Source: Myxococcota bacterium (GTDB taxonomy: Bacteria; Myxococcota_A; UBA9160; UBA6930). Taken from it: 64,000 bases of DNA. Positions 25,787-59,902 of this stretch are shown piece after piece. The notes beneath the pieces were generated by a model, which worked only from the letters and a program-made list of their open reading frames with translations, had not been told where the DNA came from and made no database searches. The stretch covers positions 544,001 to 608,000 of the forward strand of contig OZ245015.1 in the NCBI GenBank assembly GCA_965223705.1, given 5' to 3'. The position numbers and the translations under genes were made by a program. The first letter of the stretch is position 1, and the number at the start of each line of letters is the position of its first letter.

Positions 25787-25794
25787 CCCGACCT

Positions 25795-37989: not shown

Positions 37990-38016
37990 TGATCCGGTTC
38001 GGGTGCCGCGGCGACT
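37990..38016 (+). promoter_or_regulatory. ECF-type promoter motif copy 2 (divergent from copy 1)
   Basis: TGATCC-ggttcgggtgccgcgg-CGACT, preceded by an A-tract. Confidence 0.8.
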
Positions 38017-38942: not shown

Positions 38943-41480
38943 CTAGCCGGCGGGTATCACCGCTGGGACGAAGAAGAAGTCGCCGGACTCGTGGCCCGCG
39001 AATCGGATGGGGGAATACTGGGGTAGCTGCTCGATGGGCGCTTCGTAGGTCACGCGCGCCGAGACTTCCTGGAAGACGCGCTGCGCTTCGAGGATCACGT
39101 CGTTGCTCTCGAGAACTTCGATCAACGCGCGAGCGAAGATCGAGTGCGCGCCGCCCCCGGCATCGAGAACCGGAGCGAGTCCGCCCGAAGTCAGCGCCGT
39201 TCGGGAGCGCTTCGCGGCCATGGTCTCGATCCACTTCACGCGCGCCTGCTCGCTCATCCCCGCTTCCAATCGGGCGAGCGATGAGCGCGTGAGCGCACCG
39301 GAGTAGCACGAGTCTGCGATCACGAGTACGTGGCGCGCGCTCATCGAATTCAACATGTCCGTCAGGGCCACGTTCGAGATCCAGTTCGCCGTGCTGTCGG
39401 CTTCGGCATCGATCGGGAGCCAATGGCCGCGCATGTTCGTCTTGTCGAGCTCGCCGTGACCCGCGTAGTAGATGAGAAGGTTGTCGTCCTCTGTCAGCTC
39501 GCGACGCAGATTGTTGAGTGCGGAAAGCGTCTGGTAGCGATCCGCGTCGTAGATCGTGGTGACCTTGAAGCCGTACTTGTCGCGCAGCAGACCCGAGACC
39601 ACCTTGGCGTCGTTGCGCGCGGTGTCGAGGGTCGGCAGCGACCGATACGCATTGTTCCCGATGACGAGCGCGTGGTAGTTGCCGAAGTTGATCGGCGGAA
39701 GCTTCGGTCGATCGGGTGCGGCGGCTACCGCCGGCGGTTCAATGGTGCGGACGCCGCTGGCCTGCACCAGGAAGTTCCGCGAGGCGCGTTTGCCGAGTTC
39801 ATCGATCGCGACGATGCGGACATCCGTGCCGTTCTCTCCCACCGGGAGCTCGCGTTCGAAGATGCCGTGCGCCGTCACTTCGATCGCCTTGTCATTGAGT
39901 GTCACGGAATACAAACCCGCGGGCGCTTCCACGCGTCCCACGACCCGTTGCACGTCGGAGGTCGCCATAAATACGGGTCGGATGCCACGCGTCATGCGAA
40001 GGGGGGGCTCGATGATCTGGATCGACGGCCCGGCGATCTCTTCGCCTTCGCCGCTCGCCGGTTTCGCCAGTTGTGCGACTTCGACCTTGCGGGCTTCCGC
40101 CTGATCCCGGAGTCGCTTGATCTCTTGGTCGAGGGCCGCGAGTTCTGCGCTCTTCGCTTCGAGCGCCGCCTCGCGCTCGGCGACGCGTTGTTCACGGGCT
40201 GTCACGGCTTCCCCGCGATCGCCCATCGCCTCCTCTGCGGCCTCGAACTCCGCTTCGAGCCGGGCGAGGTTCGCTTCGCGCTCCGCGAGCTCCCGCCGTT
40301 GCGCCTCGCGGGCCCGGTCGAGCTCAGCGCGCTGCGCGCCGAGCTCAGCGCGCTCCGACTCGAGTGTCGCGGCGGAAGCTGCCAGCGCTTCGCGTTCCGA
40401 ACCGAGCTTGTGTCGCTCCGCGGCGAGCGCTTCGCTCGCGGCGGCATTGGCCTCGCCTGTGCGCTCGCTTTCGCCGAGAGCGCGCTCTCGACGATCGAGC
40501 TCCTCGGCGCGAGCCGCAAGCCGAGCGCGCTCCTGCGACACGGCGTCGTCCCGCGCGCCGAGCTCCGCTTCGCGTCGGTCGAGTTCGCTCTGCCGCACGG
40601 ACGTGTCGTCGTTGGCTTCCCGTTCGAAAGCTTGAACCGCGGCGCGCTCCTCGGTCAGGCGGCGCTCTCGCTCTGCGATATCGCGTTGCTGCTCGGCGAG
40701 CTCGCGCTTGCGCGCTTCGAGCTCTGCGCGCTCCACGGCGAGTGCGTCTCGTTCGCGTGCCGCTGCGGCCTCATCATTCGAGAGCCGAGCGCGCGATTGC
40801 GACAGCTCCCCCTCGAGACGACTGATCTCCGAGCGCATTTCCGTGCGATCGCGCTCGCTCTCGGCGAGTTCTGCGCGAAGACTCGCGAGCTGCGTCGTCT
40901 CCCCCGGCGCCGAAACGAACGCGACGTCGGTGCCTTCGAGACCCGAGGCTCGGCGGTACCACGACACTGCGGTCTCCATGTCGGCGGGTACGCCGAGTCC
41001 GCGTTCGTAGAGCTGGCCGAGATTGACCTGCGCCGCGGCGTGGCCCTGCTCAGCAGATTTCCGGTACCAGGTCGCGGCGGCTTTGTAATCGGGTGCCGTG
41101 CCGAGCCCGCGCTCGTAGATCTCGCCGACGTAGTTCTGGGCGACGGGGTCGCCGCTCTCCGCGGACTGCTGCCAAACGCGCAGTGCCGTGCGGTAGTCCG
41201 CCCGGTCGTAACTCACGTATTCGCCGCCGCGGATCTCGCAGTCGAGGCCCGTGGTCTTCACGGGCTTTCGGGGGGCTAGGTAGGTGACCTTGCGCCCCAT
41301 CTTGCGGACCCGCGCGGGCAGGAGACAATCGACGACGAGGAGGTCGTCGGGGTCCTGCACGGCGGCCACGGGGTTCGGCGCGGCATGGGCCTGGGGTAAA
41401 CCTGCGATGAGAACAAGCAGCAGCAACGCGAGCGCGCGGCGCAGGACGGTGGCGTCCCGGCCTAGGGGTGCGGCAAGCAT
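38943..41480 (-). CDS. Exported Sel1-repeat / coiled-coil / caspase-like (peptidase C14) protein
   Basis: Signal-like N-terminus; Sel1 repeats (AQNYVGEIYERGLG, AQVNLGQLYERGLGV); long E/R/A coiled coil; YHALVIGNNAY; catalytic YYAGHG and IADSCYSG. Confidence 0.9.
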   Translation of the reverse strand: MLAAPLGRDATVLRRALALLLLVLIAGLPQAHAAPNPVAAVQDPDDLLVVDCLLPARVRKMGRKVTYLAPRKPVKTTGLDCEIRGGEYVSYDRADYRTALRVWQQSAESGDPVAQNYVGEIYERGLGTAPDYKAAATWYRKSAEQGHAAAQVNLGQLYERGLGVPADMETAVSWYRRASGLEGTDVAFVSAPGETTQLASLRAELAESERDRTEMRSEISRLEGELSQSRARLSNDEAAAARERDALAVERAELEARKRELAEQQRDIAERERRLTEERAAVQAFEREANDDTSVRQSELDRREAELGARDDAVSQERARLAARAEELDRRERALGESERTGEANAAASEALAAERHKLGSEREALAASAATLESERAELGAQRAELDRAREAQRRELAEREANLARLEAEFEAAEEAMGDRGEAVTAREQRVAEREAALEAKSAELAALDQEIKRLRDQAEARKVEVAQLAKPASGEGEEIAGPSIQIIEPPLRMTRGIRPVFMATSDVQRVVGRVEAPAGLYSVTLNDKAIEVTAHGIFERELPVGENGTDVRIVAIDELGKRASRNFLVQASGVRTIEPPAVAAAPDRPKLPPINFGNYHALVIGNNAYRSLPTLDTARNDAKVVSGLLRDKYGFKVTTIYDADRYQTLSALNNLRRELTEDDNLLIYYAGHGELDKTNMRGHWLPIDAEADSTANWISNVALTDMLNSMSARHVLVIADSCYSGALTRSSLARLEAGMSEQARVKWIETMAAKRSRTALTSGGLAPVLDAGGGAHSIFARALIEVLESNDVILEAQRVFQEVSARVTYEAPIEQLPQYSPIRFAGHESGDFFFVPAVIPAG

Positions 41481-42303
41481 GGGGAGATCCTCCGCTCGAA
41501 AGGCAAGACTCGGGCTCTCAGCGCTGCTCGGTCTCGCAATTTGGGCCCTGGGTTGTGCCGCGCCGGCGAAGCGTTTCGACGCGACGGCCCGGGACCTCGG
41601 TTTCACACGAGAAGTCGTCCGAGGCACCCGTTTCGATCACATAGTTTACCACCGGCGCCGAAAACCCTCGGAGGGGACGCTCCACATCTACCTCGCGGGC
41701 GACGCCGATCCGAGGCGCGCGACGCGTTGGTTCCCACCGGATCCGACCCCAGGGGGGCTCCCCCTTTTCCTGATGGCCTCGGATCCCGGACCGAGTCTTC
41801 TCCTCGGACGCCCGTGCGCCCACGACGCGACGCGCTGCGACGAGGTCGCGCCCTGGACGAGCGCCCGCTACGGCGAGGCCGTCGTCGAGAGTCTCGGCGC
41901 GGCGATCGATAGCTTGGAGCCCGCGACGGGTGACCGCGGTGTCGTGTTGATCGGTTACAGCGGCGGCGGGACGCTCGCGATGCTCGTGGCGGAGCGGCTC
42001 GCCCAGGTGCGTCGCGTGGTGACGCTGGCGGGCAACCTCGACACGGCGGCCTGGGTCGGCCACCACGGCTTCCCCGGGCTGCCGGATTCACTCAACCCCG
42101 CCGAGCGGCCCCCGCTCTCGGTCCCTCAACTGCACCTCGTCGGCGAAAACGACAAGGTCGTCCCGCCCCATTTGGGGCGAACTCTTTGGGAACGTCAGCC
42201 GAACGCGGAAGTGCGCCGGCTTCCCGGCGTCGATCACACCTGCTGCTGGGAGCGCGTTTGGCCCGCCGTCGCTCGCGAGCTCCGCGAAACACCGGCCCGC
42301 TAG
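41479..42303 (+). CDS. Alpha/beta hydrolase, probable lipoprotein
   Basis: Lipobox-like ALGC, LIGYSGGG (GxSxG), DKVVP, DHTCCW. Confidence 0.82.
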   Translation: MGRSSARKARLGLSALLGLAIWALGCAAPAKRFDATARDLGFTREVVRGTRFDHIVYHRRRKPSEGTLHIYLAGDADPRRATRWFPPDPTPGGLPLFLMASDPGPSLLLGRPCAHDATRCDEVAPWTSARYGEAVVESLGAAIDSLEPATGDRGVVLIGYSGGGTLAMLVAERLAQVRRVVTLAGNLDTAAWVGHHGFPGLPDSLNPAERPPLSVPQLHLVGENDKVVPPHLGRTLWERQPNAEVRRLPGVDHTCCWERVWPAVARELRETPAR

Positions 42304-43709
42304 AACTGGTACCGCAGCCCGCCGCTCAGGGTGTAGAGGTCGACGGAGCGGAGTCCCAGCACGGTCTCGAAATCGATGAAAAAGGACAGTCCGCCCGAGA
42401 GCGCTGCGGCGATTCCCGCCGCCACGTTCGCGTAGGTCCGATCCGGCCCGTGGGCGCGGAACGTGAACCCGTTCTGGTTCGGGTCCGCGACGAAGGTCGC
42501 CCTCAAATCACGGCCGTCGTCTCCGTATTCCTGCTCCCACTCGGCCCGGATGTACGGCGTGAGCACGCCGAAGCTCGTCGACAGCGCATACCGAATCGAG
42601 AGACCCACGTCGCTCGTGAGCGAGCGCACCGTTTGATCGTCGAAGTCGAGGCGCAACGCACTGGCGATGCCGGAACCGCTTTCCGTGTAGCCGTCGATGT
42701 CGAGGTGGGTGTAGTTCACGCGAACGTAGGGTTCGATTTCCCAAGCGCCGCGGTTGATCGCGTAACCCGCGCCGACGCTGACCGCGATTTCGTCTCCGTC
42801 CGTATCGCCGGACAAGGTCCCGGTTACCGGCGCTGCGGAAGCCAGCGCGTACGCGATATCGCGGTCGAGGTCGTAATCGATGTCGGCGTAGCTGATCACG
42901 CCGTCGACGTACCAGCGCTCCATCTGATAGCTGGCGTAAGCGGAGAGGTGCAGCGCCTCCTTGTCGAGGTCACCGGCGCTGTCGTCAAAGTCGAACGTCG
43001 ATTCCGAATAACCGATCGAGATACCGGCCGCCGTCGCGTCGGAAAAGCGGTAGTCGACGCCGCCCACGATGCCGTAGGCGTCTTCGATATCGAAGCCCGC
43101 CTCTTCTTCGGTTTGATCGTAGTCGCCCCACGACCCGAGTCCTGTCACCCAGACGCCGATCCGATCGCCCAACAGGCCGCTTACCGGGTCGTCGCCGGCG
43201 GCAAACCGCTCGGCGAAAGCGACTTCGAGATCCTCGCCGCGCAGCGAGTCCCCGTCCGCGTCGCGCAACGTCAGGCCCGCGAGTTGGATGCCGCGGTGTC
43301 CGTCGCGCAACGCGATCAGTCGGCCCTTCATGAGGTCGATGTTCGTCGCGGTGGTTTCCGTCGAGGCGGCGCGCGTCGCCGACAACTCGTCGAAAGCGAC
43401 ATTCGAGTAGCCGATGTTGCGTTCGGCATCGCTCAGGCCGGTGGGATCATTTCCCAGGGTGCCGTCGCCGTCGAAATCGTTGACGACCATTTCGGTGCAC
43501 AGACCGGAGAGTCGCTCCGTTTCATTCGCCGAATTTCGATTCGGCGTCGCTCCGAGAAAAGGGCACACGGAGAAAATGAACTCCTCCCCCTTCTGGGGGA
43601 CGATGGACTGGAGCGAATCGTCGATCGGTGACTGCGCCAGCGCTTGACCGCTGCCGAAGAGCACCATCGAGAGTGCGAACGCAATGAGTAGCTTGGCCTT
43701 GACGTACAT
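42300..43709 (-). CDS. Autotransporter beta-domain outer-membrane protein with short passenger
   Basis: Signal peptide ..QALA|Q; GVDYRFSD, IDGYTESG, PYIRAEWEQEY, C-terminal GLRYQF. Confidence 0.88.
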   Translation of the reverse strand: MYVKAKLLIAFALSMVLFGSGQALAQSPIDDSLQSIVPQKGEEFIFSVCPFLGATPNRNSANETERLSGLCTEMVVNDFDGDGTLGNDPTGLSDAERNIGYSNVAFDELSATRAASTETTATNIDLMKGRLIALRDGHRGIQLAGLTLRDADGDSLRGEDLEVAFAERFAAGDDPVSGLLGDRIGVWVTGLGSWGDYDQTEEEAGFDIEDAYGIVGGVDYRFSDATAAGISIGYSESTFDFDDSAGDLDKEALHLSAYASYQMERWYVDGVISYADIDYDLDRDIAYALASAAPVTGTLSGDTDGDEIAVSVGAGYAINRGAWEIEPYVRVNYTHLDIDGYTESGSGIASALRLDFDDQTVRSLTSDVGLSIRYALSTSFGVLTPYIRAEWEQEYGDDGRDLRATFVADPNQNGFTFRAHGPDRTYANVAAGIAAALSGGLSFFIDFETVLGLRSVDLYTLSGGLRYQF

Positions 43710-43757
43710 CTCCGGTGATTCCTTCCCTGAATCGAGCCGCAACGGCGGCCCAGTGTA

Positions 43758-45779
43758 CTAAGAACGGGGCATGCTGCGAAGCGGCACGCGATCGATCGCC
43801 CAGCCGGCGGGCCGAGGCGCTGCGGGCCCCGAGCCGATGTGCTCGAGAAGCGATTCGACCCAGCTCGTACTGCGTGTTCGGCGGGCTTCTCCCACGAGCA
43901 CGGTCGGGTCGTCGATCGGGTCCTCGGTCGACAGCAGCACGAGTGTGTCGGTTCCAAAGGGCGGAGCGACTTCGATCCCGGTGCGTCCCAAAGGAACAAG
44001 AGGCGGGGGAACTTCGTCCGCCGATACGGGAACCCGGTTTCCCACATTGCCGGATTCTGCGCGGGGAAAGAGCAGGGCGCGCTCGCCGTACCCGTCGACC
44101 ACGAAAACGTAGACGTAGCGCTGTTCGACGCTGGACGTTTCGACATCGTTTCGGCGCTGCAGCATCAACTCGAAACGGTCGCCTTCGAAGACCACGCCAC
44201 CCGGAATGACGCGGCCCGCCGAGGTGTCCCGCAAGACCAGGCGGTAGGGGAAGGCCGAAGCGTTTTCGGGGGATTCGAGCAGCAGCCAGTTTCGCGCGAC
44301 AGCCAAGCGTCGGGCGTTCTCCGCGAGGAGCGCCGCTGCATTCGGCGCGGTCTCGGGAATTCCGGCCCCACGGGGCGGGAGCCCCGACGCTTCGCCCGTC
44401 CGCCGCTGCCAGTGAAGCTCCGGCGCCGGCCCGGAGTGGTCTGCGGCGAGGACGTAGTGGGCCTGCGCTTCGGAAACGAGCTCGACCCCGGGAACCGATG
44501 GGATCGAGTGGGCGAGCTCTTGGCGAAGCGTCGGCGGAACCAGTGCGGGCAGCGCGACCTGGAGGGCGCCGCCGGTCGGGTGCGCCCAGCGGACCACGCG
44601 AAACAGCGTGCCGGTTCGGACCGCCTCGGGATCTCCGGCAAGAACCCGTGCCGTCGAGCGATTCAAGCCGCTCACCTGTTCGACCTGTATGCGGACGCTG
44701 GTTTCTTCGGAGACGAGCTCGCTACCGCGAAAAATGCCGGCCGCGGTGCCCGCTCGGAGAACCACCGAGTCGCCGTCCGCCGGTCCCAACGCTGCGAAGT
44801 GCCGTCCCGGGCGTGCGGTTGCGGGCGCGGCCCCGAAAAGCGCGCGTTCCCGTCGCTCGAGGGAGCCCGCCAGCACGGGTGTTTGCACGTTGTGCCCGCT
44901 GCCGAGCAGGGCGCGCGTTCGGGCGAAGAGCTTCGACACAGGCTCGTCAGCCGGGGCCTGCCCCAGGGCCTCGAACAGGGCAACGCTGAAGGCCCCGTGG
45001 TATTCGCCGCTCGCGTCGCGGGATTCTCGGGCGAGCTCACCGTCGGAGGTCGCCGCCAAGACGAGCGCACCGCGCTCCTCCGGTGCTCCTCGGGGGTCGA
45101 AGGGCGGCGTCGCGGCTCCCGCCTCGGCTTCGTAGCGGGGGGGAAGCGTCCGCACGTCTTCTACCGCGTGGAAGCTTCGAGTGGCCGAGCCGCTGTGACA
45201 GCTGTCGAGAATCACGACGAGCTCGGCGCCGCGATCGAGGACGTCGTTGAACAAGCTGCGGAGCTCTTTGTCCCGGATGTCCGCGGCGCCGCGATTCGCG
45301 TCGGCCGGCACGATCGTTTCGTCGAGGAGGTCCGCTTCGGTAGACGCCGCGTTCCGCAACTGTGAGCCGTGCCCCGCGAAGTAGAACAAGTTGACGTCGC
45401 CCGGGCCCGAAGCCTCGATCAGATGCTCGCGTATGGCGTTGAGGATGCCGTCGCGGGTGGCTTCGCCGTCGGTCAGTACACGAACGGACTCGCTCGGAAA
45501 CCCAAACCGTCCTTGTAGGATCGCCCGGAGCGCTTCGGCATCGTTCACCGCGCCGCGGAGATCGACCCAACTCGCGGAGGCTTTCGCCCGCCCGCGCGTC
45601 ACAGCGACCGCGCCGGCTTCCGGTCTGTAGCGGTCGATGCCCACCAAGAGCGCGCGTTGTGCGCCGGCGGCAGCGTCGGCGAAGCAACAGATGGCGAGGG
45701 CGGCGAGGAGCCAAAGGGTCGGCCGACGCCGCGCCTTGTGCACAACGTCGGCCGACCGATGGTGGGAGTTTCGGATCAC
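43758..45779 (-). CDS. Exported caspase-like (C14) protease with C-terminal DUF4384-like domain
   Basis: Signal-like N-terminus; RALLVGIDRY, LRGAVNDA, FYFAGHGS, ILDSCHSG, HGAFS; C-terminal YVYVFVVDGYG..LLFP..PPFGTDTLVLL. Confidence 0.88.
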   Translation of the reverse strand: MIRNSHHRSADVVHKARRRPTLWLLAALAICCFADAAAGAQRALLVGIDRYRPEAGAVAVTRGRAKASASWVDLRGAVNDAEALRAILQGRFGFPSESVRVLTDGEATRDGILNAIREHLIEASGPGDVNLFYFAGHGSQLRNAASTEADLLDETIVPADANRGAADIRDKELRSLFNDVLDRGAELVVILDSCHSGSATRSFHAVEDVRTLPPRYEAEAGAATPPFDPRGAPEERGALVLAATSDGELARESRDASGEYHGAFSVALFEALGQAPADEPVSKLFARTRALLGSGHNVQTPVLAGSLERRERALFGAAPATARPGRHFAALGPADGDSVVLRAGTAAGIFRGSELVSEETSVRIQVEQVSGLNRSTARVLAGDPEAVRTGTLFRVVRWAHPTGGALQVALPALVPPTLRQELAHSIPSVPGVELVSEAQAHYVLAADHSGPAPELHWQRRTGEASGLPPRGAGIPETAPNAAALLAENARRLAVARNWLLLESPENASAFPYRLVLRDTSAGRVIPGGVVFEGDRFELMLQRRNDVETSSVEQRYVYVFVVDGYGERALLFPRAESGNVGNRVPVSADEVPPPLVPLGRTGIEVAPPFGTDTLVLLSTEDPIDDPTVLVGEARRTRSTSWVESLLEHIGSGPAAPRPAGWAIDRVPLRSMPRS

Positions 45780-46318
45780 TAGTTCGCCTTGCGGAACTGT
45801 ACGCGTCGGTTCTTCGATGCCGTGGGCTTCACCTCGGGCAGCGGCGTGTCTTCGCCGCGACCCACGGTGACGAGCCGAGCCGGGTCGATCTGGTGCGACT
45901 TCACCAGGTAGTTCCGGACGGACGCCGCGCGAAGCTCGGAAAGTCGCTGGTTGTAGGTCCGCTCGCCGATCGCATCGGTGTGGCCCTCGATCACGAGTTT
46001 CTCGTTCTTCGCCTGCTCGGTGCGCAGGGCCTGGCCGAGCTGATCGAGGAAGGGCTGGGATTCCGCGAGGATCTCCGCCGAATCAAAACCGAAGCGCACC
46101 TGGAACCCGATGGTCTGGGGCGGCGTGGGCGCAGGCGCGTCCTTCATCACGATCGACCGCGTCTTGTAGGCCGGCGCTGCGGCGGGGAACAGGCGGTCCG
46201 CCAGTTCCTGGGCCGACGGGGTCGAGCCCTCGATCATGTGTACCTCTTCGGCGGAGGCGGTATTCGCCGCGAGGATCAGCGCGGCACCTGTCAGCAAGAC
46301 TCGAAGCAATCCAAACAT
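45779..46318 (-). CDS. OmpA C-terminal-type peptidoglycan-binding protein
   Basis: Signal peptide; FGFDSAEI, IEGHTDAIG..YNQRLSELRA, NRRVQF. Confidence 0.92.
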   Translation of the reverse strand: MFGLLRVLLTGAALILAANTASAEEVHMIEGSTPSAQELADRLFPAAAPAYKTRSIVMKDAPAPTPPQTIGFQVRFGFDSAEILAESQPFLDQLGQALRTEQAKNEKLVIEGHTDAIGERTYNQRLSELRAASVRNYLVKSHQIDPARLVTVGRGEDTPLPEVKPTASKNRRVQFRKAN

Positions 46319-46348
46319 GTTCAATTCTCCTTGGGCCAGGGGCCTTGG

Positions 46349-47875
46349 TTATTGCGAGACGTCGATCCCGAGGCGGCCCACCGTGAGCCCCTTCGGATCG
46401 ATCGCTTCAAAATGTCCCAACAATTCGTTCAAGTTCGCGACGGGAAGCGGCTGTAGGTCGCCGCCCTTGAGCTCGGACGGGAGATGCAGTCCGAGCTCGC
46501 GGTCGGAAGCGACGCACGCGATCTCTTCCCGCGTGTTCGGTCGTTCGAACAAGATGGTGAACGGAGCATCGCGAGACGGAACCTCGACGAAGCGCTTGCC
46601 GCCCACGTAGGAGTTCGGCTGGAAGCGGTTCGGAAAGATCCGCGCCACGTGACCGCCCGCATCGGCGTAGTAGCAGTAGACGTACGCGCTGTCCGAAGTC
46701 TCCACGGTCATGCGGAACTCTTCGCCGACTTTGTAGGTCGGGTTCGCGCCCCGCTCGTTCAGCATCTTGAGCGTCAACGGTTCGCGCGCCGCAAGCTTCT
46801 CAGGAGTCGGCACCGAGCCAGTGTCTTCGAGGCTCGGCGGACCGGCGGCGACCTGGTAGTCCGCGCCGAGAAGCGTCCGATAGAGGTCGAAACCCACGCG
46901 ACCCGTCGGCACGAGGTTATTCTCGGTTTCGAACCGTGCGATGGCTTTGCGGGTGGCGCCGTCGAGCGTTCCGGCGCTTTCTCCCTCGAGATAGCCGCCG
47001 GCGACGAGTGCGCGCTGCACGAAGAGCAAGCGCTGCTTGTCCGACATGCTGGCGTACCAGTCGCGAATCTCCGCCAACACCTCGGGGTGCGTGGACTCGA
47101 TCTGCAAGCACTCCCAGTACGGCACGCGGGCGAGCTTGCCGAGGAGCTCGATCGCGCCGAGCTCGACCAACGTACGAACGGCTTGGTGCATGCCTTCGCT
47201 GCGGTCGATATCGATGCTGAAGGAAATGCCGACTTTTTCGATCAACCCGGCGAGATCCGCGCCCTTGCCCTTGCGGCGCACGGCCAAGCGGTTGCTCGCG
47301 GTGAGCCCGGGAACGACGCGCTTCGAGGGGTACTGAACGATGTTCATGTCGAGTGCCAACACCGAGGCGGTATTCGTTGCCGCCGCGGACGCGTCACCCG
47401 AGAGATCGTCGTTGTCGTAGGAAAGGCCGCCGCCGATCGAGTTGTCTTCGACGTTTCGATCGAGCTGCGTGATCGCGCCGCGAATATAGAAGTGCGGCAG
47501 GTTCTGATTGACCGGAAGCTCGGCCTGTTTCCCGATCGTGTCGAGATAGATGATCTGCTCCTGGTACTGCAGATCCAGATAGGAGAAGGCCTGGCTTCGC
47601 ATGGTCATCCGGGAAACGGCCGACATCAGCATGTCGTCGGTACCGGCGGCGACCTTGCCCGTCGCGTCCGGGATGCCGATCGACGTGATGCGGAAACCGC
47701 GCACGCCGTTTGCCACGAACATCTGGTCCATGCACGTCAGCGACTCGCTGAAGCTCGTCATCGACCGGACCGCCTGGGTCTTCGGTACGGACGTGATGTA
47801 GGGATCTTCGGGGATGGTCTTACAGGCGACCAGCCCGAGACAAAGCGAAAGAACGAGTAGAGCTTTAGCAGCCAT
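46349..47875 (-). CDS. CsgG/HfaB-family lipoprotein fused to PG-binding and DUF4384 domains
   Basis: Lipobox LVAC; SFSESLTCM, IPDATGKV, FYIRGAITQLDRN, LALDMNIV, EGMHQAVRTLVE (CsgG/HfaB pattern); VQRALVAGGY..TRKAIARFE..NNLVPTG (PG_binding_1); YKVGEEFRMTV..AYVYCYY..IFPN (DUF4384). Confidence 0.8.
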   Translation of the reverse strand: MAAKALLVLSLCLGLVACKTIPEDPYITSVPKTQAVRSMTSFSESLTCMDQMFVANGVRGFRITSIGIPDATGKVAAGTDDMLMSAVSRMTMRSQAFSYLDLQYQEQIIYLDTIGKQAELPVNQNLPHFYIRGAITQLDRNVEDNSIGGGLSYDNDDLSGDASAAATNTASVLALDMNIVQYPSKRVVPGLTASNRLAVRRKGKGADLAGLIEKVGISFSIDIDRSEGMHQAVRTLVELGAIELLGKLARVPYWECLQIESTHPEVLAEIRDWYASMSDKQRLLFVQRALVAGGYLEGESAGTLDGATRKAIARFETENNLVPTGRVGFDLYRTLLGADYQVAAGPPSLEDTGSVPTPEKLAAREPLTLKMLNERGANPTYKVGEEFRMTVETSDSAYVYCYYADAGGHVARIFPNRFQPNSYVGGKRFVEVPSRDAPFTILFERPNTREEIACVASDRELGLHLPSELKGGDLQPLPVANLNELLGHFEAIDPKGLTVGRLGIDVSQ

Positions 47876-48200
47876 CGCGGTTGAATCCTCGGTTGATGTT
47901 GATGACGTCGCCGTCGATGACAACTTCGATCTCGTCGGGCACGTCGTTCTTGCCAGGACCGGTGAAGACGCTGCCGATCGACAGGCTACCGGTGCAGTTC
48001 ACAATATCGCCTCGGTGATAGAATTTTCCGGGCTCCTGCTCCTCGGGAACGATCGTTTCGCCCGCGACGCTGGCTTTGTGCATCTTGCGGAGATGCGAAG
48101 CCTTCACGCGGGGCTTGTTGAAATCGTTCGCCAACGCGGTGTGCGCCGGCACGAAGGAGAGGCCGAGTGCGAGTAGCAACAGGGTGTTCGTGATCTTCAT
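47865..48200 (-). CDS. Small secreted protein overlapping the start of the CsgG-like gene (candidate nucleator/adaptor)
   Basis: Signal peptide ..TALA|N; CTGSLSIGSV and EIEVVIDGDVINI; terminal Cys; SD-like GAGGGAG upstream. Confidence 0.75.
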   Translation of the reverse strand: MKITNTLLLLALGLSFVPAHTALANDFNKPRVKASHLRKMHKASVAGETIVPEEQEPGKFYHRGDIVNCTGSLSIGSVFTGPGKNDVPDEIEVVIDGDVININRGFNRDGC

Positions 48201-48242: not shown

Positions 48243-48269
48243 AGTCGCGCCTTCTCTTGTCCTGGATCA
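48243..48269 (-). promoter_or_regulatory. ECF-type promoter motif copy 3 (upstream of the export operon)
   Basis: TGATCC-aggacaagagaaggcg-CGACT. Confidence 0.8.
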
Positions 48270-48518
48270 CCGAGAAGTCGGGAAATCGCTCGTATCCTCG
48301 GGAACCTGCTGGACTTCGGTGTCCGCGCGATCGCCCAAGGGGCAGAGCTCGGTCGGCGAGTCGATCGGCAAGCTCGGTACGGCTTCGAAAGACACGGTTT
48401 CGCAGTACGTGATCTCGATGGGATCGTCGACGTCCGCATCGCTGAGCGCAAACGCCGGTACGGTCGTCGTGAAGTCGAGGAAGAAGAGGGCGGTCAGCAG
48501 AAGTCGTTGTCGTTTCAT
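48267..48518 (-). CDS. Small acidic secreted protein (83 aa, 2 Cys)
   Basis: MKRQRLLLTALFFLDFTTTVPAFA signal-like segment; own promoter motif and GAGG SD. Confidence 0.55.
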   Translation of the reverse strand: MKRQRLLLTALFFLDFTTTVPAFALSDADVDDPIEITYCETVSFEAVPSLPIDSPTELCPLGDRADTEVQQVPEDTSDFPTSR

Positions 48519-48547: not shown

Positions 48548-48574
48548 AGTCGACGGCGGGGGCTTCTCGGATCA
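48548..48574 (-). promoter_or_regulatory. ECF-type promoter motif copy 4
   Basis: TGATCC-gagaagcccccgccgt-CGACT. Confidence 0.8.
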
Positions 48575-48585
48575 CCGAACGCGAA

Positions 48586-48669: not shown

Positions 48670-48996
48670 TTACTGCTGGGGTTCGCAGTCGGTCGCGGCA
48701 CCGAGCGATCCGAAGGTCGCGCACGCGTTCGACTCGTAGGATTTCGCCATGGTGTCGACGTACTTGGCGGTGCCCTCGAGGACCGGATCCCAACCGATGC
48801 GCGTGTAGTCGTGCATGGTCGCGACGCTCGTGTACGCGCTCGACTTCGTGCCCGACGCGACGGTATCGACGTTTTCACCCACCGCGAGGGTGATGAGGAG
48901 GTCGTGGACCTCGGTGGTGAAATCGCCAGCGACGCTGGCCTGGGCGAGGGAGAGAGTCGCGATCGCCGCAATCGCGACGGAGAACAAGCGGTTCAT
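48670..48996 (-). CDS. Secreted two-repeat beta-rich protein, paralog 5
   Basis: MNRLFSVAIAAIATLSLAQASVA|GDFTTEV..VDTVASGTKSSAYTSVATMHD/YTRIG..VDTMAKSYESNACATFGSLG..C; SD AAGGAG. Confidence 0.88.
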   Translation of the reverse strand: MNRLFSVAIAAIATLSLAQASVAGDFTTEVHDLLITLAVGENVDTVASGTKSSAYTSVATMHDYTRIGWDPVLEGTAKYVDTMAKSYESNACATFGSLGAATDCEPQQ

Positions 48997-49046
48997 GGTG
49001 GTGCTCCTTGTGGTGTGGGTCCCGCTATTTCCGGGACTTGAAGAGG

Positions 49047-49073
49047 AGTCGCGCCAGGGCGTGTCACGGATCA
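49047..49073 (-). promoter_or_regulatory. ECF-type promoter motif copy 5
   Basis: TGATCC-gtgacacgccctggcg-CGACT. Confidence 0.82.
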
Positions 49074-49082
49074 CCGATCCCG

Positions 49083-49116
49083 AAAAGAAAAAGCGCCGGC
49101 TCTTTCGAGCCGGCGC
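49083..49116 (-). terminator. Rho-independent terminator after paralog 4
   Basis: GCGCCGGCTC-gaaa-GAGCCGGCGC followed by TTTTTCTTTT. Confidence 0.88.
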
Positions 49117-49141
49117 CAGAGGGGCAGGGGGACGTGTTGCC

Positions 49142-49465
49142 TTAGCGGGGTTCGCAGAAAGTCGGGTTGCCGACGGAACCGAAGGACGCGCAGGCGTGCG
49201 CGTTGTAGCCGCTGGCCTTGGTCTCGATGTAGCGCGCGTCGCCCTTGAGGTTCGTCTTGTAGTTGATGAGCGTGTCGTCGTGCACTGTCGCGACACTCGT
49301 CGTGGCGCTCGAGTAGTCACCCGTGGCGAGCGTGTCGACCTGGTAGCCGTAGGCGTCGGTGTCGAGCTGCGCGCGGATCTCGGTGGTGAAGGGGTTCGCG
49401 AAGCTCACGCTCGCGATGGTCAGGGCGGCAAAGCCGGCGATGGCGGAAACGAAGAGGCGGTTCAT
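49142..49465 (-). CDS. Secreted two-repeat beta-rich protein, paralog 4
   Basis: 107 aa; signal ..VSFA|NPF; very similar to paralog 3; SD AAGGAG. Confidence 0.9.
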   Translation of the reverse strand: MNRLFVSAIAGFAALTIASVSFANPFTTEIRAQLDTDAYGYQVDTLATGDYSSATTSVATVHDDTLINYKTNLKGDARYIETKASGYNAHACASFGSVGNPTFCEPR

Positions 49466-49519
49466 GATGTTCTAGCTCCTTGGTGGTGTTTGTGGGTCGC
49501 TTCCTGCGACTTGCCTAGG

Positions 49520-49546
49520 AGTCGGGCCAGGAGGGGTCTCAGATCA
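49520..49546 (-). promoter_or_regulatory. ECF-type promoter motif copy 6
   Basis: TGATCT-gagacccctcctggcc-CGACT. Confidence 0.78.
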
Positions 49547-49554
49547 CCTGCGGC

Positions 49555-49589
49555 AAAAAAAAAGCGCCGGCTCACGAATGAGCCGGCGC
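49555..49589 (-). terminator. Rho-independent terminator after paralog 3
   Basis: GCGCCGGCTCA-ttcg-TGAGCCGGCGC followed by a T-run. Confidence 0.9.
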
Positions 49590-49614
49590 CGTCGTGTCGT
49601 GTCGGCTGCGAAGG

Positions 49615-49965
49615 TTACTCCTGGACGAGCATCTTGCTGCGCTGGCCGGGCTCGCAGTGGGTCGGGTTGCCGACGGAACCGAAGGACGCGCAGGCGTGCG
49701 AGTCGTAGCCGCTGGCCCGGGTCTCGATCCAGCGAGCGTCGCCCTTGAGGTTCGTCTTGTAGTTGATGAGCGTGAAATCGTGCACGGTCGCGACGCTCGT
49801 CGTGGCGCTCGAGTGGCGGCCCGAAGCGACGGTATCGACCTGGTAGCCGTAGGCGTCGGTGTCGAGTTGGCCGCGGACCTCGGTGGTGAAGGGGTTCGCG
49901 AAGCTCACGCTCGCGATGGACAGGGCGGCAAAGCCGGCGATGGCGGAAACGAAGAGGCGGTTCAT
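49615..49965 (-). CDS. Secreted two-repeat beta-rich protein, paralog 3
   Basis: 116 aa; same architecture with a short C-terminal extension. Confidence 0.9.
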   Translation of the reverse strand: MNRLFVSAIAGFAALSIASVSFANPFTTEVRGQLDTDAYGYQVDTVASGRHSSATTSVATVHDFTLINYKTNLKGDARWIETRASGYDSHACASFGSVGNPTHCEPGQRSKMLVQE

Positions 49966-50020
49966 GATGTTCTAGCTCCTTGGTGGTTTTTCGCGGGTCG
50001 CTCCTTACGACCCGTGAAGA

Positions 50021-50047
50021 GGTCGTTCGAGGAGCCGCCCTGGATCA
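50021..50047 (-). promoter_or_regulatory. ECF-type promoter motif copy 7
   Basis: TGATCC-agggcggctcctcgaa-CGACC. Confidence 0.8.
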
Positions 50048-50055
50048 TCGACAGC

Positions 50056-50090
50056 AAAAAAAAGCGCCGGCTCGAGGTGAGCCGGCGCTT
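50056..50090 (-). terminator. Rho-independent terminator after paralog 2
   Basis: AAGCGCCGGCTC..GAGCCGGCGC followed by a T-run. Confidence 0.9.
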
Positions 50091-50113
50091 CGGAGGCGGG
50101 GAAAACCGTCGGG

Positions 50114-50440
50114 TTAGTGCTTCGGGCGGCAGTACGTCGGGGCACCGACCGAGCCGAAGGTCGCGCAGGCGTGGGCGTTGTTGCCGCTGGCCTCGGTGCG
50201 GATGTATTCCGCCTTGCCCTTCAGGTTCGTCTTGTACTGGATGAGCGTGTAGTCGTGCACGGTCGCGACGCTCGTCATCGCGCTCGAGTTGTCGCCCGTG
50301 GCGAGGGTGTCGACGTTCTTGCCGTAAGCATCGGTGTCGAGCTGAGCCCGGACCTCGGTGGTGAAGTCATTGGCGAAGCTCACGTTGGCGATGGACAGGG
50401 CGGCGAAGCCGGCGATTGCGATAGCGAAGAAGCGGTTCAT
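50114..50440 (-). CDS. Secreted two-repeat beta-rich protein, paralog 2
   Basis: 108 aa; signal ..VSFA|NDF; two 37-aa repeats; C-x11-C. Confidence 0.9.
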   Translation of the reverse strand: MNRFFAIAIAGFAALSIANVSFANDFTTEVRAQLDTDAYGKNVDTLATGDNSSAMTSVATVHDYTLIQYKTNLKGKAEYIRTEASGNNAHACATFGSVGAPTYCRPKH

Positions 50441-50505
50441 TGGATGGTTCCTTTGGTGGGATCGTTTTCAAACTCTCTGTCGCGCCCCTGCGCGACTTGC
50501 TGAGG

Positions 50506-50532
50506 AGTCGTTCGCCGGCCGCTTCCGGATCA
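50506..50532 (-). promoter_or_regulatory. ECF-type promoter motif copy 8
   Basis: TGATCC-ggaagcggccggcgaa-CGACT. Confidence 0.82.
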
Positions 50533-50573
50533 CCCGAGCTCATTTTTTTCAGCGCGATCGCGATTTTTTCCAG

Positions 50574-50613
50574 AAAAGAAAAAGGCGCCGGCTCGAGGGG
50601 AGGAGCCGGCGCC
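50574..50613 (-). terminator. Rho-independent terminator after paralog 1
   Basis: GGCGCCGGCTC..GAGCCGGCGCC followed by TTTTTCTTTT. Confidence 0.88.
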
Positions 50614-50639
50614 TCGGGAGAGGAGGAGAGCTTTCGGGG

Positions 50640-50975
50640 TTAGTTCTTCTCCTCGCAGTGGGTCGCGGGGCCGATCGACGCGACGCTCGTGCAGGCGCGC
50701 GATCCACTGTGGCTGGCCTCGGTCCAGACGTCGCGTACGGAGACGTCGATCTTGACCGGACCCTCGATCTTCGTGTCGTCGTGGATCGACGCGACGCTCG
50801 AGTAGGCGACGGCGTTGGCGGCCGTGGCCTTCGTCGTAACGTCCCGGACTTCCACGGTAATTTCGACCCGATCCTTGATCACGGTCGAGAAGTCACCGGC
50901 GAAGCTCGCGGTGGCGAACGACATCGACACGATGCTTAGGGTGATAGCGGCGATGAGGGCGAAGGCGCGGAGCAT
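50640..50975 (-). CDS. Secreted two-repeat beta-rich protein, paralog 1 (most divergent)
   Basis: ATG 50975 with SD AGGAG; STVIKDRVEITVEVRDVTTKATAANAVAYSSVASIHD / DTKIEGPVKIDVSVRDVWTEASHSGSRACTSVASIG. Confidence 0.88.
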   Translation of the reverse strand: MLRAFALIAAITLSIVSMSFATASFAGDFSTVIKDRVEITVEVRDVTTKATAANAVAYSSVASIHDDTKIEGPVKIDVSVRDVWTEASHSGSRACTSVASIGPATHCEEKN

Positions 50976-51031: not shown

Positions 51032-51058
51032 AGTCGCGGGCACTTCCCGTTTGGATCA
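51032..51058 (-). promoter_or_regulatory. ECF-type promoter motif copy 9
   Basis: TGATCC-aaacgggaagtgcccg-CGACT. Confidence 0.82.
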
Positions 51059-51144
51059 CCGCGAAGGAAAAAACGATTTATCCCCACGGGGCAGTGCGGT
51101 ACAGTACGATCGAGTCCTCGGTTAGAGAGGGTCGGCGACAAGCG

Positions 51145-52017
51145 ATGGATCGAGAACAGTGGAAGACAGTTCTCAACGCGGCGAGCGACGGCGACGCGCC
51201 CGCCTTGCTTCAGCTGACCCGCCAGGTCAGCCGGCTCCTCGAGGAGTACGGCGCCTACACCGTCCGTAAGGAGTGGGCCGAGGACGTCCAGAAGATCACG
51301 GCAGCGGTTCTCGAGGGATGGGCCGAGGGTGGAACCCTCGCCGCGGACACCCATATCGAAAGCGTCACCAAGAACCGTTTTTGGGGTCAGATTCTCGATC
51401 TGATGACCCAGAACGATATGAAGGCGGGCCAGCTCTTCTTTCCGACCGTTCGCCGTCTACTCGGCAAGTGGGACGGGGCCCGGCGCGCCGAGGCGCAATG
51501 GGACGACATCGTTCAGGAGACCGCGCACCAGCTCTGGGAGAGCTGGATGAAGGGTGGGGTGAAACGCCCCTGGTCGCTGCTGTGCACCATCGCGAAACGC
51601 CGTTATCTCGACAAAATCCGCGCCGAGCGCCACACGGAAGAAATCGAGGATGAAGCTTCTGAGGAGCTGGGTGACAGCCCCGGCGAGCTCTTCACCGAAC
51701 AAGCCCTGGCCGTCCTCGAAGAAGAGGAGCGGCAGGTCATTGTCCAAATGGACATCGAGGGCAGGACGCGCGTCGAAATCGCGGATTCTCTCGGCGTGAC
51801 CGAAGGCCAGGTGCTTTCGACGCGCCGGGCGGGGTTGCGCCGCATCTGGAGATGGCTCGGCCGCGACCTTCCACCGACCTCGCGCGCCGTCTGGGAGGAG
51901 ATGTTCAAAGGCGCGCGGCGAATTCCCCCGGAGGAAGTGGCCGCCAAGCTCAGTATGGAGACCGCCGAGGTCGTCGAGATCCTCGAAGAGGCGCGCGTCC
52001 TCACGGGGCTCGCATGA
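51145..52017 (+). CDS. ECF-type sigma-70 factor with N- and C-terminal extra domains
   Basis: sigma2 WDDIVQETAHQLW..LLCTIAKRRYLDKIR; sigma4 LEEEERQVIVQMDIEGRTRVEIADSLGVTEGQVLSTRRAGLRRI. Confidence 0.85.
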   Translation: MDREQWKTVLNAASDGDAPALLQLTRQVSRLLEEYGAYTVRKEWAEDVQKITAAVLEGWAEGGTLAADTHIESVTKNRFWGQILDLMTQNDMKAGQLFFPTVRRLLGKWDGARRAEAQWDDIVQETAHQLWESWMKGGVKRPWSLLCTIAKRRYLDKIRAERHTEEIEDEASEELGDSPGELFTEQALAVLEEEERQVIVQMDIEGRTRVEIADSLGVTEGQVLSTRRAGLRRIWRWLGRDLPPTSRAVWEEMFKGARRIPPEEVAAKLSMETAEVVEILEEARVLTGLA

Positions 52018-52038
52018 GGGAAAAAACTCGCTGTGAAG

Positions 52039-52065
52039 TGATCCGGAACGTCCACTGGCGCGACT
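52039..52065 (+). promoter_or_regulatory. ECF-type promoter motif copy 10 (upstream of the anti-sigma gene)
   Basis: TGATCC-ggaacgtccactggcg-CGACT, preceded by an A-tract. Confidence 0.82.
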
Positions 52066-52129: not shown

Positions 52130-52912
52130 ATGACCAGCAAGGCCCACGAGCCTGACTTCGAAGACCGACTCGAGCGGTCCACCGGTGCCCGCCTGCGCGG
52201 CGAAGACCCGCGCGAGCTGACCTGGCACCCCTCGGACAGCGAGTTGCTCGCGTTCCACGCAGAGCCTCGCGGGATGGAGGCCTCATTGCGGTCCCGCATC
52301 CGCGATCACTTCGGGAGCTGCGGATCGTGCCGCGATGCGTTCGCGGCGTTCTCGGTACTGGCCGCCGCGCCTGCGCCCGAGGTGGCGCGCGCAGCGGCCG
52401 CCGATTCTCCTTCTCTGCTCGAGCGCTTGTTCGAGCCGTTCCGCGCGATGTTCGCGCAGCCCGCCTTGGTCTCGGCCATGGTCGCGGTCTTCGCCGTCGC
52501 GGGTTTTCTCGCGATCGACCCGATCGATCCGGGCCCCGGTGAGGGCACCCGGGGCGTGTATCCCATCGAACGCACGCCCTCGGTCGATCCCGGCACGCTC
52601 GGTTCGGCGACCGTCACCCTGGCGAGCGGCTTTCCGACGCGAGTCGAAGCCGATGCGTTGTCGGGTTCTCGGGAAGTCGTCCTCGAGCTCCTCGCGCCTT
52701 CGACGCTTCCGGCGGGGCCCGAGTTCACGGTCCGCTTGATGGGGCCCGAGGGGGCCCGCGAAGCGGTCGCCCAGCTCGGCGAAGAAGCTCCGCCGCGGAT
52801 CGCCGCGATTTTTCCGGCCGAGGCTCTGACGCCCGGCGCGTATCGGGTGACGGTCTTTCTACCCTCCGACGCGACGTCCGCGCTCGCGACCTACGAACTC
52901 GAGATCGAGTGA
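52130..52912 (+). CDS. Zinc-binding (ZAS/zf-HC2) transmembrane anti-sigma factor
   Basis: HPSDSELLAF..HFGSCGSC (HxxxCxxC), one TM helix, beta-rich extracytoplasmic domain; lies directly after the sigma gene. Confidence 0.82.
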   Translation: MTSKAHEPDFEDRLERSTGARLRGEDPRELTWHPSDSELLAFHAEPRGMEASLRSRIRDHFGSCGSCRDAFAAFSVLAAAPAPEVARAAAADSPSLLERLFEPFRAMFAQPALVSAMVAVFAVAGFLAIDPIDPGPGEGTRGVYPIERTPSVDPGTLGSATVTLASGFPTRVEADALSGSREVVLELLAPSTLPAGPEFTVRLMGPEGAREAVAQLGEEAPPRIAAIFPAEALTPGAYRVTVFLPSDATSALATYELEIE

Positions 52913-53130
52913 TGCACCGTCTTCTCGTCGCCGCGGCGTTTCTCGCGCTGGCGTGCGTCGACGGCGGACGAAGCCCCGAAGCGAGTCTCGACGGTGCGCT
53001 GCACGTGACGTGTCGCGGGGCTGGCACAGCCGTGACGGTGATTGGATCGCGCGCCGCAGACGCAGGGCGCGTCGTCGCCCGGGACGTTCGGACCGACGCC
53101 GGACGCGGCAGCCGCTGCGAAGAGTCCTAG
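52909..53130 (+). CDS. Short lipoprotein-like ORF, possibly a truncated alpha/beta-hydrolase remnant
   Basis: Overlaps the anti-sigma stop; LALAC lipobox; LHVTCRGAGTAVTVI. Confidence 0.35.
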   Translation: MMHRLLVAAAFLALACVDGGRSPEASLDGALHVTCRGAGTAVTVIGSRAADAGRVVARDVRTDAGRGSRCEES

Positions 53131-58951: not shown

Positions 58952-59134
58952 CCACAGCGTTCTGCCAGGCCTCGAAACCGTCACCAGACGCGCAGGCCGC
59001 GGTTGTTTTTCTCCGACAATCCCCCTCAACTAGTCACGAAACCTCCCGCCTGGTGTGACCCCTTCGGCGTTTGGCGTTCCTAGGCTCCTATGGGATTTGG
59101 GAGCCGTGTGGGAGCGGCTTTGGGGGAACGGCTT

Positions 59135-59902
59135 ATGAGAAGTGTATTTTCGATTCGCGCCGTGGCAGCGGGCGCTCTCGCGGTGTTGCTTGCCACGTCG
59201 GCGAATGCCGCGACTTTTTCGCCCTCGGTCTGGTTGGAGATCCAAAGCAACGAGGGCAGCTCGAACGTGAGCTTCAATCAGTTCGGCAGCATGAGCGGGA
59301 CGGAGACCGAGGTCGCCACCTGGACGATGGTGGGGCCGTGGACCGATGGGAACGGGGTTTGGGTCAACTCTTGGGAGACCGATCTCAAGGTCGATCCTTT
59401 CGTGACGAATAGCCTCGACGTGACGAACAGCTCCGCTGTAGCGCAGACCTTCGTCGCGACCATCTTGCTACCGATTCCGGCGTTCAGCTACGACGAGATT
59501 GTCGGCTCGAGTCTCGGTGCCACGGTGACCGACAGTGACGGCAACAACGTGCTGAGTTTCTCGGACAATGCTGTCGTTACGATGTATCAGGGGTTGATCA
59601 ACGGTGTGTCCCTTCTCGATCTGAATACGCCCGCCAACCCGATTACGACGGCCGACTGTCCGGTTGCATTCGGAGGGTGCACGGCCGTTTCCGCGACGGG
59701 TGTGGCTTCCCTGGCGGTCGCTCCCGGAATCGCAAACGAGATCGGTATCACGCTCACATTTACGCTCAGCCCCGGAGACTCGGCGGCGGTGACGAGCCGT
59801 TTCGAGATCGTGCCCGAGCCCGGCACGGTGGCGCTCCTGACCATGGGCTTGGTCGGCCTCGGCTATTCGGGCCGAGTTCGACGCATCCGAGGCGCCGCAT
59901 AG
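59135..59902 (+). CDS. PEP-CTERM sorting-domain surface protein
   Basis: Signal peptide ..SANA|ATF; S/T-rich body; VPEPGTVALLTMGLVGLGYSGRVRR. Confidence 0.92.
   Translation: MRSVFSIRAVAAGALAVLLATSANAATFSPSVWLEIQSNEGSSNVSFNQFGSMSGTETEVATWTMVGPWTDGNGVWVNSWETDLKVDPFVTNSLDVTNSSAVAQTFVATILLPIPAFSYDEIVGSSLGATVTDSDGNNVLSFSDNAVVTMYQGLINGVSLLDLNTPANPITTADCPVAFGGCTAVSATGVASLAVAPGIANEIGITLTFTLSPGDSAAVTSRFEIVPEPGTVALLTMGLVGLGYSGRVRRIRGAA

Follow-up and report, generated by a model that had tools for sequence, protein, structure and literature searches.

The stretch of DNA considered here, called the window throughout, spans 64,000 nucleotides (nt) of a Myxococcota bacterium (GenBank assembly GCA_965223705.1, contig OZ245015.1, positions 544,001 to 608,000 of the forward strand), and all coordinates are counted from its first letter. 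At 48670-50975 it carries five minus-strand open reading frames (ORFs) of 107-116 codons, which encode paralogous repeat proteins with signal-like N-termini. These proteins, together with a nearby lipoprotein predicted to have the fold of the curli pore protein CsgG, are the subject of this work. The five genes, with lengths in amino acids (aa), are:

50640..50975, minus strand: paralog 1 (p1), 111 aa, with a signal peptide, two 37-aa repeats and C-x11-C; nearest to the family consensus
50114..50440, minus strand: paralog 2 (p2), 108 aa
49615..49965, minus strand: paralog 3 (p3), 116 aa
49142..49465, minus strand: paralog 4 (p4), 107 aa; 70 of 82 mature residues identical to p3
48670..48996, minus strand: paralog 5 (p5), 108 aa

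All five proteins begin with a hydrophobic, signal-like segment ending in A-x-A or similar; signal peptides, here and in the wider family, were judged by eye from the sequence. The mature parts align without gaps, and C-x11-C lies near the C-terminal end in every one. On self-comparison, a lag of 37 residues ranks first in p1, p3, p4 and p5 and second in p2, where the best lag is 46. The number of shuffled sequences per 500 that reached the best self-match score was 0 for p1, 12 for p2, 2 for p3, 27 for p4 and 10 for p5, so the 37-aa repeat stands out in p1 and p3 and, taken singly, p2, p4 and p5 are borderline. A one-repeat profile, built from part of the same family that it scored, finds at least two copies in 141 of 150 family proteins. 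The architecture proposed in the initial annotation, five paralogs with a signal peptide, two 37-aa repeats and C-x11-C, is thus confirmed by the ORFs, the gap-free alignment, the lag-37 self-comparison and the family profile.

The paralogs are unequally related. Mature identity among p2-p4 is 59-70 of 82 residues, p5 shares 42-46 of 82 with p2-p4, and p1 shares 26-29 of 82 with the other four. Of the two paralogs initially described as divergent, p5 is therefore less so than p1. The further suggestion, that p2-p4 are major subunits and p1 and p5 minor subunits or nucleators, is not supported, since p5 clusters with p2-p4 and p1 lies nearest to the family consensus. We rejected such a split also because a promoter motif precedes each of the five genes and because one to three copies are found at related loci. 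Values of dN/dS are 0.4-0.5 among p2-p4 and 0.75-1.5 for pairs with p1 or p5, and are uninformative at a third-position GC content (GC3) of ~0.9 (0.88-0.94 in p1-p5). A search of the genome by tblastn gave no sixth copy. An assembly artefact was rejected as the origin of the paralogs; in contigs from public runs, which may represent the source sample, the near-identical p3 and p4 are on separate pieces, another piece crosses the p3/p4 junction, and none spans the entire stretch.

Word-based searches reached close relatives alone, 11 for p2 and 2 for p1, one of them named from a Myxococcales bacterium metagenome-assembled genome. More diverged members came from genome searches, both in the window's own class and in one Oleiphilaceae genome. 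A family profile of 13 rows, searched against 1.84 billion representatives, matched 201 clusters (50% identity) at E 0.001 and 53 at 1e-10. Family statistics refer to 150 listed members of the 201 clusters, with long members undercounted. Two repeats are found in 111 members, three in 27, four in 3, one in 8 and none in 1, with 143 of 174 spacings falling at 34-38 residues; one family member has 10 matched stretches. The terminal Cys pair is present in 95 members and missing from 55 and, judged from these sequences, is optional. The family consensus, IxGDVxIxVxxxxVxTxAxGxxxxAxTxIGS[VI], alternates Val, Ile, Ala and Thr with conserved Gly and has no Asn/Gln ladder. Pfam and NCBIfam scans of the paralogs and 88 family members gave scattered weak matches alone, in at most 5 of the 88 members per family, none of them convincing. 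In the ESM Atlas, p1 had no usable match and the Oleiphilaceae homolog led to unnamed Pseudomonadota clusters scoring under 0.9. A pattern scan of the genome contigs with alignment A1 gave 23 candidates, none confirmed, and tblastn of one family member against plasmids gave no match.

Some relatives depart from the common form. In two close homologs (P0008 and P0011), the C-terminal part diverges after the first or in the middle of the second repeat, as it would after frameshifts or recombination between copies. In three others (P0143, P0134 and L084:1984-4344), the repeat lies within larger proteins of 371, 453 and 786 aa, respectively, with no Pfam match. Secreted repeat proteins richer in Asn/Gln, with a period of 39-40, adjoin distant homologs of the lipoprotein (L066:5985-6650, L067:9345-9845, L069:6000-6461 and L070:8741-9667) and form a possible sister cargo family.

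AlphaFold2 predicts the p1 monomer, from five sequences, as an all-beta fold of period 37 with a predicted local distance difference test (pLDDT) of 82.7 and a predicted template modeling score (pTM) of 0.60. With an 88-row alignment, ESMFold2 predicts four copies of p1 to stack head to tail with a score of 0.79, and the best of three controls reached 0.01. In calibration, 20 of 30 proteins whose solved form is a pair of one chain passed the mark, as did 1 of 23 solved as single chains. The four-copy runs agree in at least 97% of contacts, with pLDDT of at least 84. According to this modeling, the best contacts join residue n+37 of one copy to residue n of the next (50/13, 57/20, 72/35), so that the second repeat of one chain meets the first repeat of the next and the solenoid continues between chains with the Cys tail in place. 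Foldseek with the p1 model returned nothing at E 0.001; the weak rows are beta-helices, and this absence does not show a new fold. The solved FapC fibrils 9nqd and 9u4u appeared at E 1.9 and 5.0 with a template modeling score (TM) under 0.2, and FapC is not in the list from VIA, where the sole match was HET-s(218-289) (Z 3.3, root mean square deviation (rmsd) 5.8, 68 aligned, 4% identity). The earlier proposal of stackable cross-beta or beta-solenoid subunits is still a prediction, now supported by the monomer model, the in-register p1 stack with its controls, and the conserved CsgG-fold neighbor, a feature absent from the initial annotation. That neighbor and a small gene overlapping its start are:

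46349..47875, minus strand: lipoprotein, 508 aa, lipobox LVAC, with CsgG/HfaB-fold, peptidoglycan-binding and DUF4384 domains; candidate outer-membrane pore
47865..48200, minus strand: one-repeat gene, 111 aa, exported; basic N-terminal segment and a Cys-bounded single permuted repeat; 11-bp overlap with the lipoprotein start

The N-terminal domain of the lipoprotein matches NCBIfam HfaB weakly, at E 3e-11, and a homolog of the lipoprotein passes the Pfam CsgG cut-off (21.1 versus 20.8 bits). CsgG was not among the PDB entries found by sequence search with the lipoprotein and came up in the fold search alone. The domain was modeled as a monomer (pLDDT 70), and the best match of this model is CsgG, with Foldseek E 7e-7 and VIA Z 12.1 (rmsd 4.3, 148 aligned), the next match being at Z 9.4. 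In the alignment, Gly-rich alternating segments occupy two hairpin positions, which we take to be equivalents of the CsgG membrane hairpins. These models make the lipoprotein a candidate CsgG-like outer-membrane pore. With a probability of 84% over 38 columns, the Cys-bounded end of the one-repeat protein aligns to the repeat junction in the repeat profile; taken by itself, the window copy does not reach significance (97 of 1000 shuffles). This conserved one-repeat protein is a better candidate for a nucleator or adaptor than p1 or p5.

The subunit and lipoprotein genes tend to occur together. Among 401 genomes sampled from the phylum of the Oleiphilaceae genome, the subunit profile matches 12 (10 below 1e-10 and 2 near 1e-5) and the lipoprotein matches 20 at 1e-40. 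These 20 are headed by the 10 strong subunit genomes, in 9 of which the two genes are adjacent. Among 225 genomes of the window's own class, the subunit is found in 7 at E 0.01 (5 strong, G000 included) and the lipoprotein in 7, the 5 strong ones being shared. A subunit-profile match at E <=0.01 is present at 13 of 20 lipoprotein loci, and the one-repeat gene at 10. Four more of the 20 have an adjacent signal-bearing protein with a period of 35-40, picked by eye in an uncontrolled self-comparison where many wrong-frame ORFs scored too. In sequence searches, the conserved gene order is subunits, one-repeat gene, lipoprotein, OmpA. A plasmid of Azospirillum lipoferum 4B carries a subunit (WP_044553250.1) near a lipoprotein (WP_162488445.1). 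At this locus (L035, NC_016587.1, 8014-23530), an integrase gene precedes the cluster, and FHA, PP2C, trypsin-like and Ser/Thr kinase genes follow it.

The window locus also has a recurrent promoter motif, terminator-like hairpins and a gene for a sigma factor of the extracytoplasmic function (ECF) type:

51032..51059, minus strand: promoter motif GTGATCC-N16-CGACT, 56 nt before p1
50506..50533, minus strand: the same motif as at p1, before p2
50021..50048, minus strand: variant ATGATCC-N16-CGACC, before p3
49520..49547, minus strand: motif GTGATCT-N16-CGACT, before p4
49047..49074, minus strand: ECF-type promoter motif, before p5
48548..48575, minus strand: ECF-type promoter motif, before the gene for an 83-aa protein
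48243..48270, minus strand: ECF-type promoter motif, before the run of one-repeat and lipoprotein genes
52038..52065, plus strand: ECF-type promoter motif, before the anti-sigma-like gene
50582..50615, minus strand: intrinsic terminator-like hairpin, after p1
50061..50091, minus strand: terminator-like hairpin with the same stem, after p2
49563..49590, minus strand: terminator-like hairpin with the same stem, after p3
49092..49117, minus strand: terminator-like hairpin with the same stem, after p4
51094..52017, plus strand: ECF sigma factor, 307 aa, in which a region-2-like segment is duplicated; oriented divergently to p1
52130..52912, plus strand: anti-sigma-like protein with an H-x3-C-x2-C motif, one hydrophobic segment and a C-terminal domain; no Pfam match
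52909..53130, plus strand: 73-aa lipoprotein-like gene following the anti-sigma gene

The motif, [GA]TGATCY-N16-CGACY, thus occurs in 8 copies, 29-65 nt before the starts of p1-p5, two small genes and the anti-sigma-like gene. With its own promoter motif and, for p1-p4, a near-identical terminator hairpin, each paralog resembles a duplicated promoter-gene-terminator cassette. Because 5 terminator sites were found against 3.7 in shuffles, the evidence for the hairpins lies in their position and shared stem. Strict motif matches within 14 kb at the locus make up 9 of 17 genome matches in G000, 10 of 22 in G123 and 6 of 17 in G178, and no such cluster exists in any of five relatives without the system, which have 11-23 matches genome-wide. 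The 14-versus-0-to-9 spacer excess of the motif is largely the locus cluster itself. Three named proteobacterial loci were checked as well, and no copy of the motif was found ahead of their subunit genes.

Close homologs of the sigma factor are encoded at the G123 and G178 loci. Its region-2-like tandem duplication has 25% identity over 79 aa (pairwise E 1e-7), followed by an extra helix-turn-helix-like tail. We infer that it reads the adjacent TGATCY-N16-CGACY motif, and the motif cluster near the sigma locus, being bipartite, with a fixed spacer and upstream of its putative targets, is consistent with an ECF regulon. The RpoE(Rsp)-type ECF promoter (PSPTO_1043) is given as TGATCC-N16-CGTA (PMC5507510). 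The motif here shares the first hexamer and the 16-nt spacer but has CGAC[TC] as the second element, and the sigma factor differs by its 307 aa and duplicated region-2-like part. The repeat profile matches the G123 counterpart of the 73-aa protein (0 of 1000 shuffles) and the window copy weakly (42 of 1000), and this protein is possibly a lipid-anchored primer. The motif also occurs elsewhere. At window positions 37931-38016, two copies, one per strand, stand back to back and one of them precedes a Cys-rich ORF of 65 aa, with similar pairs in G123 and G178. In G000, copies precede a 108-aa ORF (C1:936561, plus strand) and an 84-aa signal-bearing ORF (C1:986151, minus strand) at a similar start distance; both ORFs are candidate regulon members.

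The remaining genes of the locus are:

48267..48518, minus strand: 83-aa acidic protein with a signal-like start; no repeat (440 of 1000 shuffles as high)
45779..46324, minus strand: OmpA-family peptidoglycan-binding protein
43758..45779, minus strand: caspase-family (C14) protein with a signal-like start, intact His-Cys dyad and weak DUF4384
42300..43742, minus strand: autotransporter-type beta-barrel with a short N-terminal part; start uncertain
41284..42303, plus strand: alpha/beta hydrolase, which also adjoins the cluster in G123, G850 and G590
38943..41627, minus strand: Sel1-coiled coil-caspase protein, dyad intact; start uncertain

Downstream of p5, the order is therefore the 83-aa gene, the one-repeat gene, the lipoprotein, OmpA, caspase-DUF4384, the barrel, the hydrolase on the opposite strand and Sel1-caspase. 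The caspases are missing from several related loci. Elsewhere in the window, positions 24935-27123 (plus strand) encode what reads from the sequence as a PP2C-like phosphatase beside a Ser/Thr kinase with a Cys-rich C-terminal tail. An exported protein at 59090-59902 (plus strand) has a C-terminal VPEPG, presumably a PEP-CTERM-like sorting motif.

The end-to-end stacking predicted for p1 and the adjoining relative of the curli export pore make the paralogs likely building blocks of a fiber. We propose, with a probability of roughly two in three, that p1-p5 are subunits of a curli-like, Asn/Gln-independent cross-beta surface fiber exported via the CsgG-fold lipoprotein. Here the repeats, signal-like N-termini, family, gene order and motif come from sequence, the solenoid, stacking and CsgG fold from prediction, and the steps of the mechanism from analogy with curli and Fap. 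Sec would export the subunits, which would then cross, unfolded, a ring of CsgG fold tethered to peptidoglycan. Assembly may be primed by the one-repeat protein (47865-48200) in a CsgF/CsgB-like role. Subunits would then stack head to tail, with one 37-residue repeat per rung and two rungs per chain, and Val, Ile, Ala and Thr with Gly turns would replace Asn/Gln ladders in the core. The optional disulfide would pin the subunit tail and leave the stack uncapped. The adjacent ECF sigma factor may induce the genes jointly, with gene duplication raising the subunit dose, and the caspase-like proteins may take part in processing or quality control, a role that FapD has in Fap (for CsgF, CsgB and FapD, see PMC12822426 and PMC13721041). 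A broader claim, which we put at somewhat less than even odds, is that the system adds another functional-amyloid pathway to curli and Fap in Gram-negative bacteria and is present in at least two phyla. It would comprise an Asn/Gln-independent rung of 34-38 residues, a peptidoglycan-tethered CsgG-family pore, a one-repeat adaptor, exported caspases and a dedicated ECF sigma factor, with five paralogs co-polymerizing into a mosaic fiber.

Several points weigh against the proposed fiber and putative pore. The stack model is of p1 alone; in p2-p5 the core residues are smaller and the self-repeat scores weak. The four-copy score of 0.79 comes from a job with its own alignment, outside the tool's calibration, and AlphaFold2 is described as over-predicting confident beta-solenoids for repeats (PMC11795689). 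The lipoprotein scores 42.9 bits against NCBIfam NF037935 (HfaB), far below the 300-bit cut-off, and itself fails Pfam CsgG. Model confidence is low for its first putative hairpin (residues 119-144), and LpoB, TolB-N, FlgT, PelC and LptE-like proteins, lipoproteins of the same fold that are not known to be protein pores, also match its model at VIA Z 5-9. Kinship among the sampled genomes makes the co-occurrence counts look more independent than they are, and the two weak subunit genomes (E ~1e-5) have no lipoprotein at E 1e-40. No adjacent repeat protein is seen at 3 of the 20 lipoprotein loci (one on a 3.3-kb contig), and an Azospirillum ramasamyi plasmid locus has no adjacent subunit. Genome-wide motif totals are alike with the system (17-22) and without it (11-23), so these counts were rejected as evidence and local clustering alone counts.

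The same CsgG-like pore might instead serve short cell-anchored oligomers, or a surface layer or anchor like Caulobacter HfaA/HfaD. HfaB is the best family match of the lipoprotein, HfaA multimers resistant to sodium dodecyl sulfate need HfaB (PMC6707917), a four-copy model is blind to long versus short polymers, and the Cys-bounded tail of 95 of 150 members could limit growth. We consider this reading unlikely, as the predicted stack includes the Cys tail and has both ends in register, five separately promoted copies would suggest bulk production, the 88 members scanned have no Hfa family match, and polysaccharide export genes were not noted within the conserved core. It is also conceivable that the lipoprotein is a periplasmic peptidoglycan-tethered scaffold and no pore, with the repeat proteins as periplasmic parts of an ECF-controlled envelope-stress module with caspase-like proteases. 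The fold is common to non-pore lipoproteins, but CsgG outranks all other fold members in two methods, and Gly-rich alternating segments stand at two hairpin positions that we take to be equivalent to those of CsgG. Such a scaffold would fit a cluster with two peptidoglycan-binding domains and proteases of exported type, and also the large share of Pfam CsgG matches outside curli operons (430 of 601, against 171 of 601 within them; PMC3521004, Table 1). A repeat protein adjoins the lipoprotein in 17 of 20 loci, however, and the scaffold is improbable.

Finally, the two-repeat unit could be an amyloid signal like HET-s or BASS, by which the neighboring caspases are templated and activated. Although HET-s(218-289), the sole VIA match, also has two windings per chain and caspase genes are adjacent, the Z of 3.3 is within noise, the repeat profile matches no caspase ORF at the 26 loci scanned, and several loci lack caspases. 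In addition, BASS motifs are reported from NLR contexts (10.1101/2020.01.06.895854), whereas here the proteins carry signal peptides, with no NLR noted in their vicinity. This signaling role is very improbable, and BASS/HET-s identity was rejected for these stand-alone signal-peptide proteins.

Of the functional-amyloid systems in Gram-negative bacteria, two are well studied, curli and Fap, and each relies on Asn/Gln ladders. If the curli-like fiber proposed here is real, its hydrophobic Val/Ile/Ala/Thr repeat would be a different way to encode controlled amyloid, and such fibers would escape present curli and Fap searches of biofilms and metagenomes. One clade of the CsgG-like proteins found outside curli operons would also gain a cargo, and DUF4384 and the exported caspases of bacteria would gain a context. 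The proposal can be tested at present, as the subunits have ~85 residues and the cultured Azospirillum lipoferum 4B carries a subunit near the lipoprotein. No description of the gene cluster was found in open-licence literature and bioRxiv; the sigma factor and motif may already be present in supplementary ECF group tables. New here are an in-register stacking model with controls, ECF-type promoter cassettes for the individual genes, a one-repeat protein as candidate adaptor and a cultured strain that carries the system.

The minimal curli repeat is X6QXGX2NX10, of ~23 aa (PMC10192328, PMC3521004), and CsgA homologs vary in repeat number (PMC3521004). The proteins described here likewise are small Sec-type subunits of imperfect tandem repeats, variable in number and predicted to stack as open-ended solenoids, with a CsgG-fold lipoprotein in the cluster and a small accessory protein alongside. 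They differ from curli in a repeat of 34-38 aa, no X6QXGX2NX10, no Asn/Gln ladders and an optional terminal disulfide. In addition, the pore candidate is fused to peptidoglycan-binding and DUF4384 domains, and OmpA, caspases and an ECF sigma factor stand in place of recognizable CsgC/D/E/F. Curli- and Fap-type functional amyloids are defined by cross-beta fibers, dye binding and resistance to sodium dodecyl sulfate, and the curli pore by a nonameric transmembrane barrel that conducts the subunit; the models here give predicted in-register stacking and a monomeric domain of the pore candidate. Curlin identity was rejected: none of the five window proteins has the motif, and of 150 family proteins, with their spacing of 34-38, 2 have it. 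Curlin Pfam PF07012 is absent from the genome at E 0.01, and the 15 window proteins scanned have no Pfam match to CsgE/CsgF, for which no genome-wide search was made.

FapC and FapB are described as having a conserved Asn/Gln core motif and Greek-key layers with linkers (PMC12392863). Like Pseudomonas Fap, the present system has one repeat per predicted cross-beta layer, repeats longer than curlin, a clustered cysteine protease and a nearby beta-barrel. Unlike Fap, it has two abutting linker-free repeats, no Asn/Gln core, a protease of the caspase C14 family and a CsgG-fold partner instead of FapF. FapC identity was rejected as well, with NQQ in 0 of 150 family proteins and 2-7 N+Q residues per mature window chain. 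The initial claim that curlin and FapC motifs are absent thus holds for all five window proteins. The Caulobacter holdfast anchor (HfaA, HfaB, HfaD) also pairs a CsgG-like lipoprotein with non-curlin, amyloid-like cargo, but the system here has a sub-cut-off HfaB score, cargo without Hfa match, extra domains, and other phyla and gene context. The HET-s prion-forming domain resembles the predicted beta-solenoid in its two windings per chain and differs in that our proteins match it at Z 3.3 with 4% identity, are exported rather than cytoplasmic and have a longer repeat. In general, the system is curli-like in its proposed working, yet it is not to be filed as curli, Fap or Hfa.

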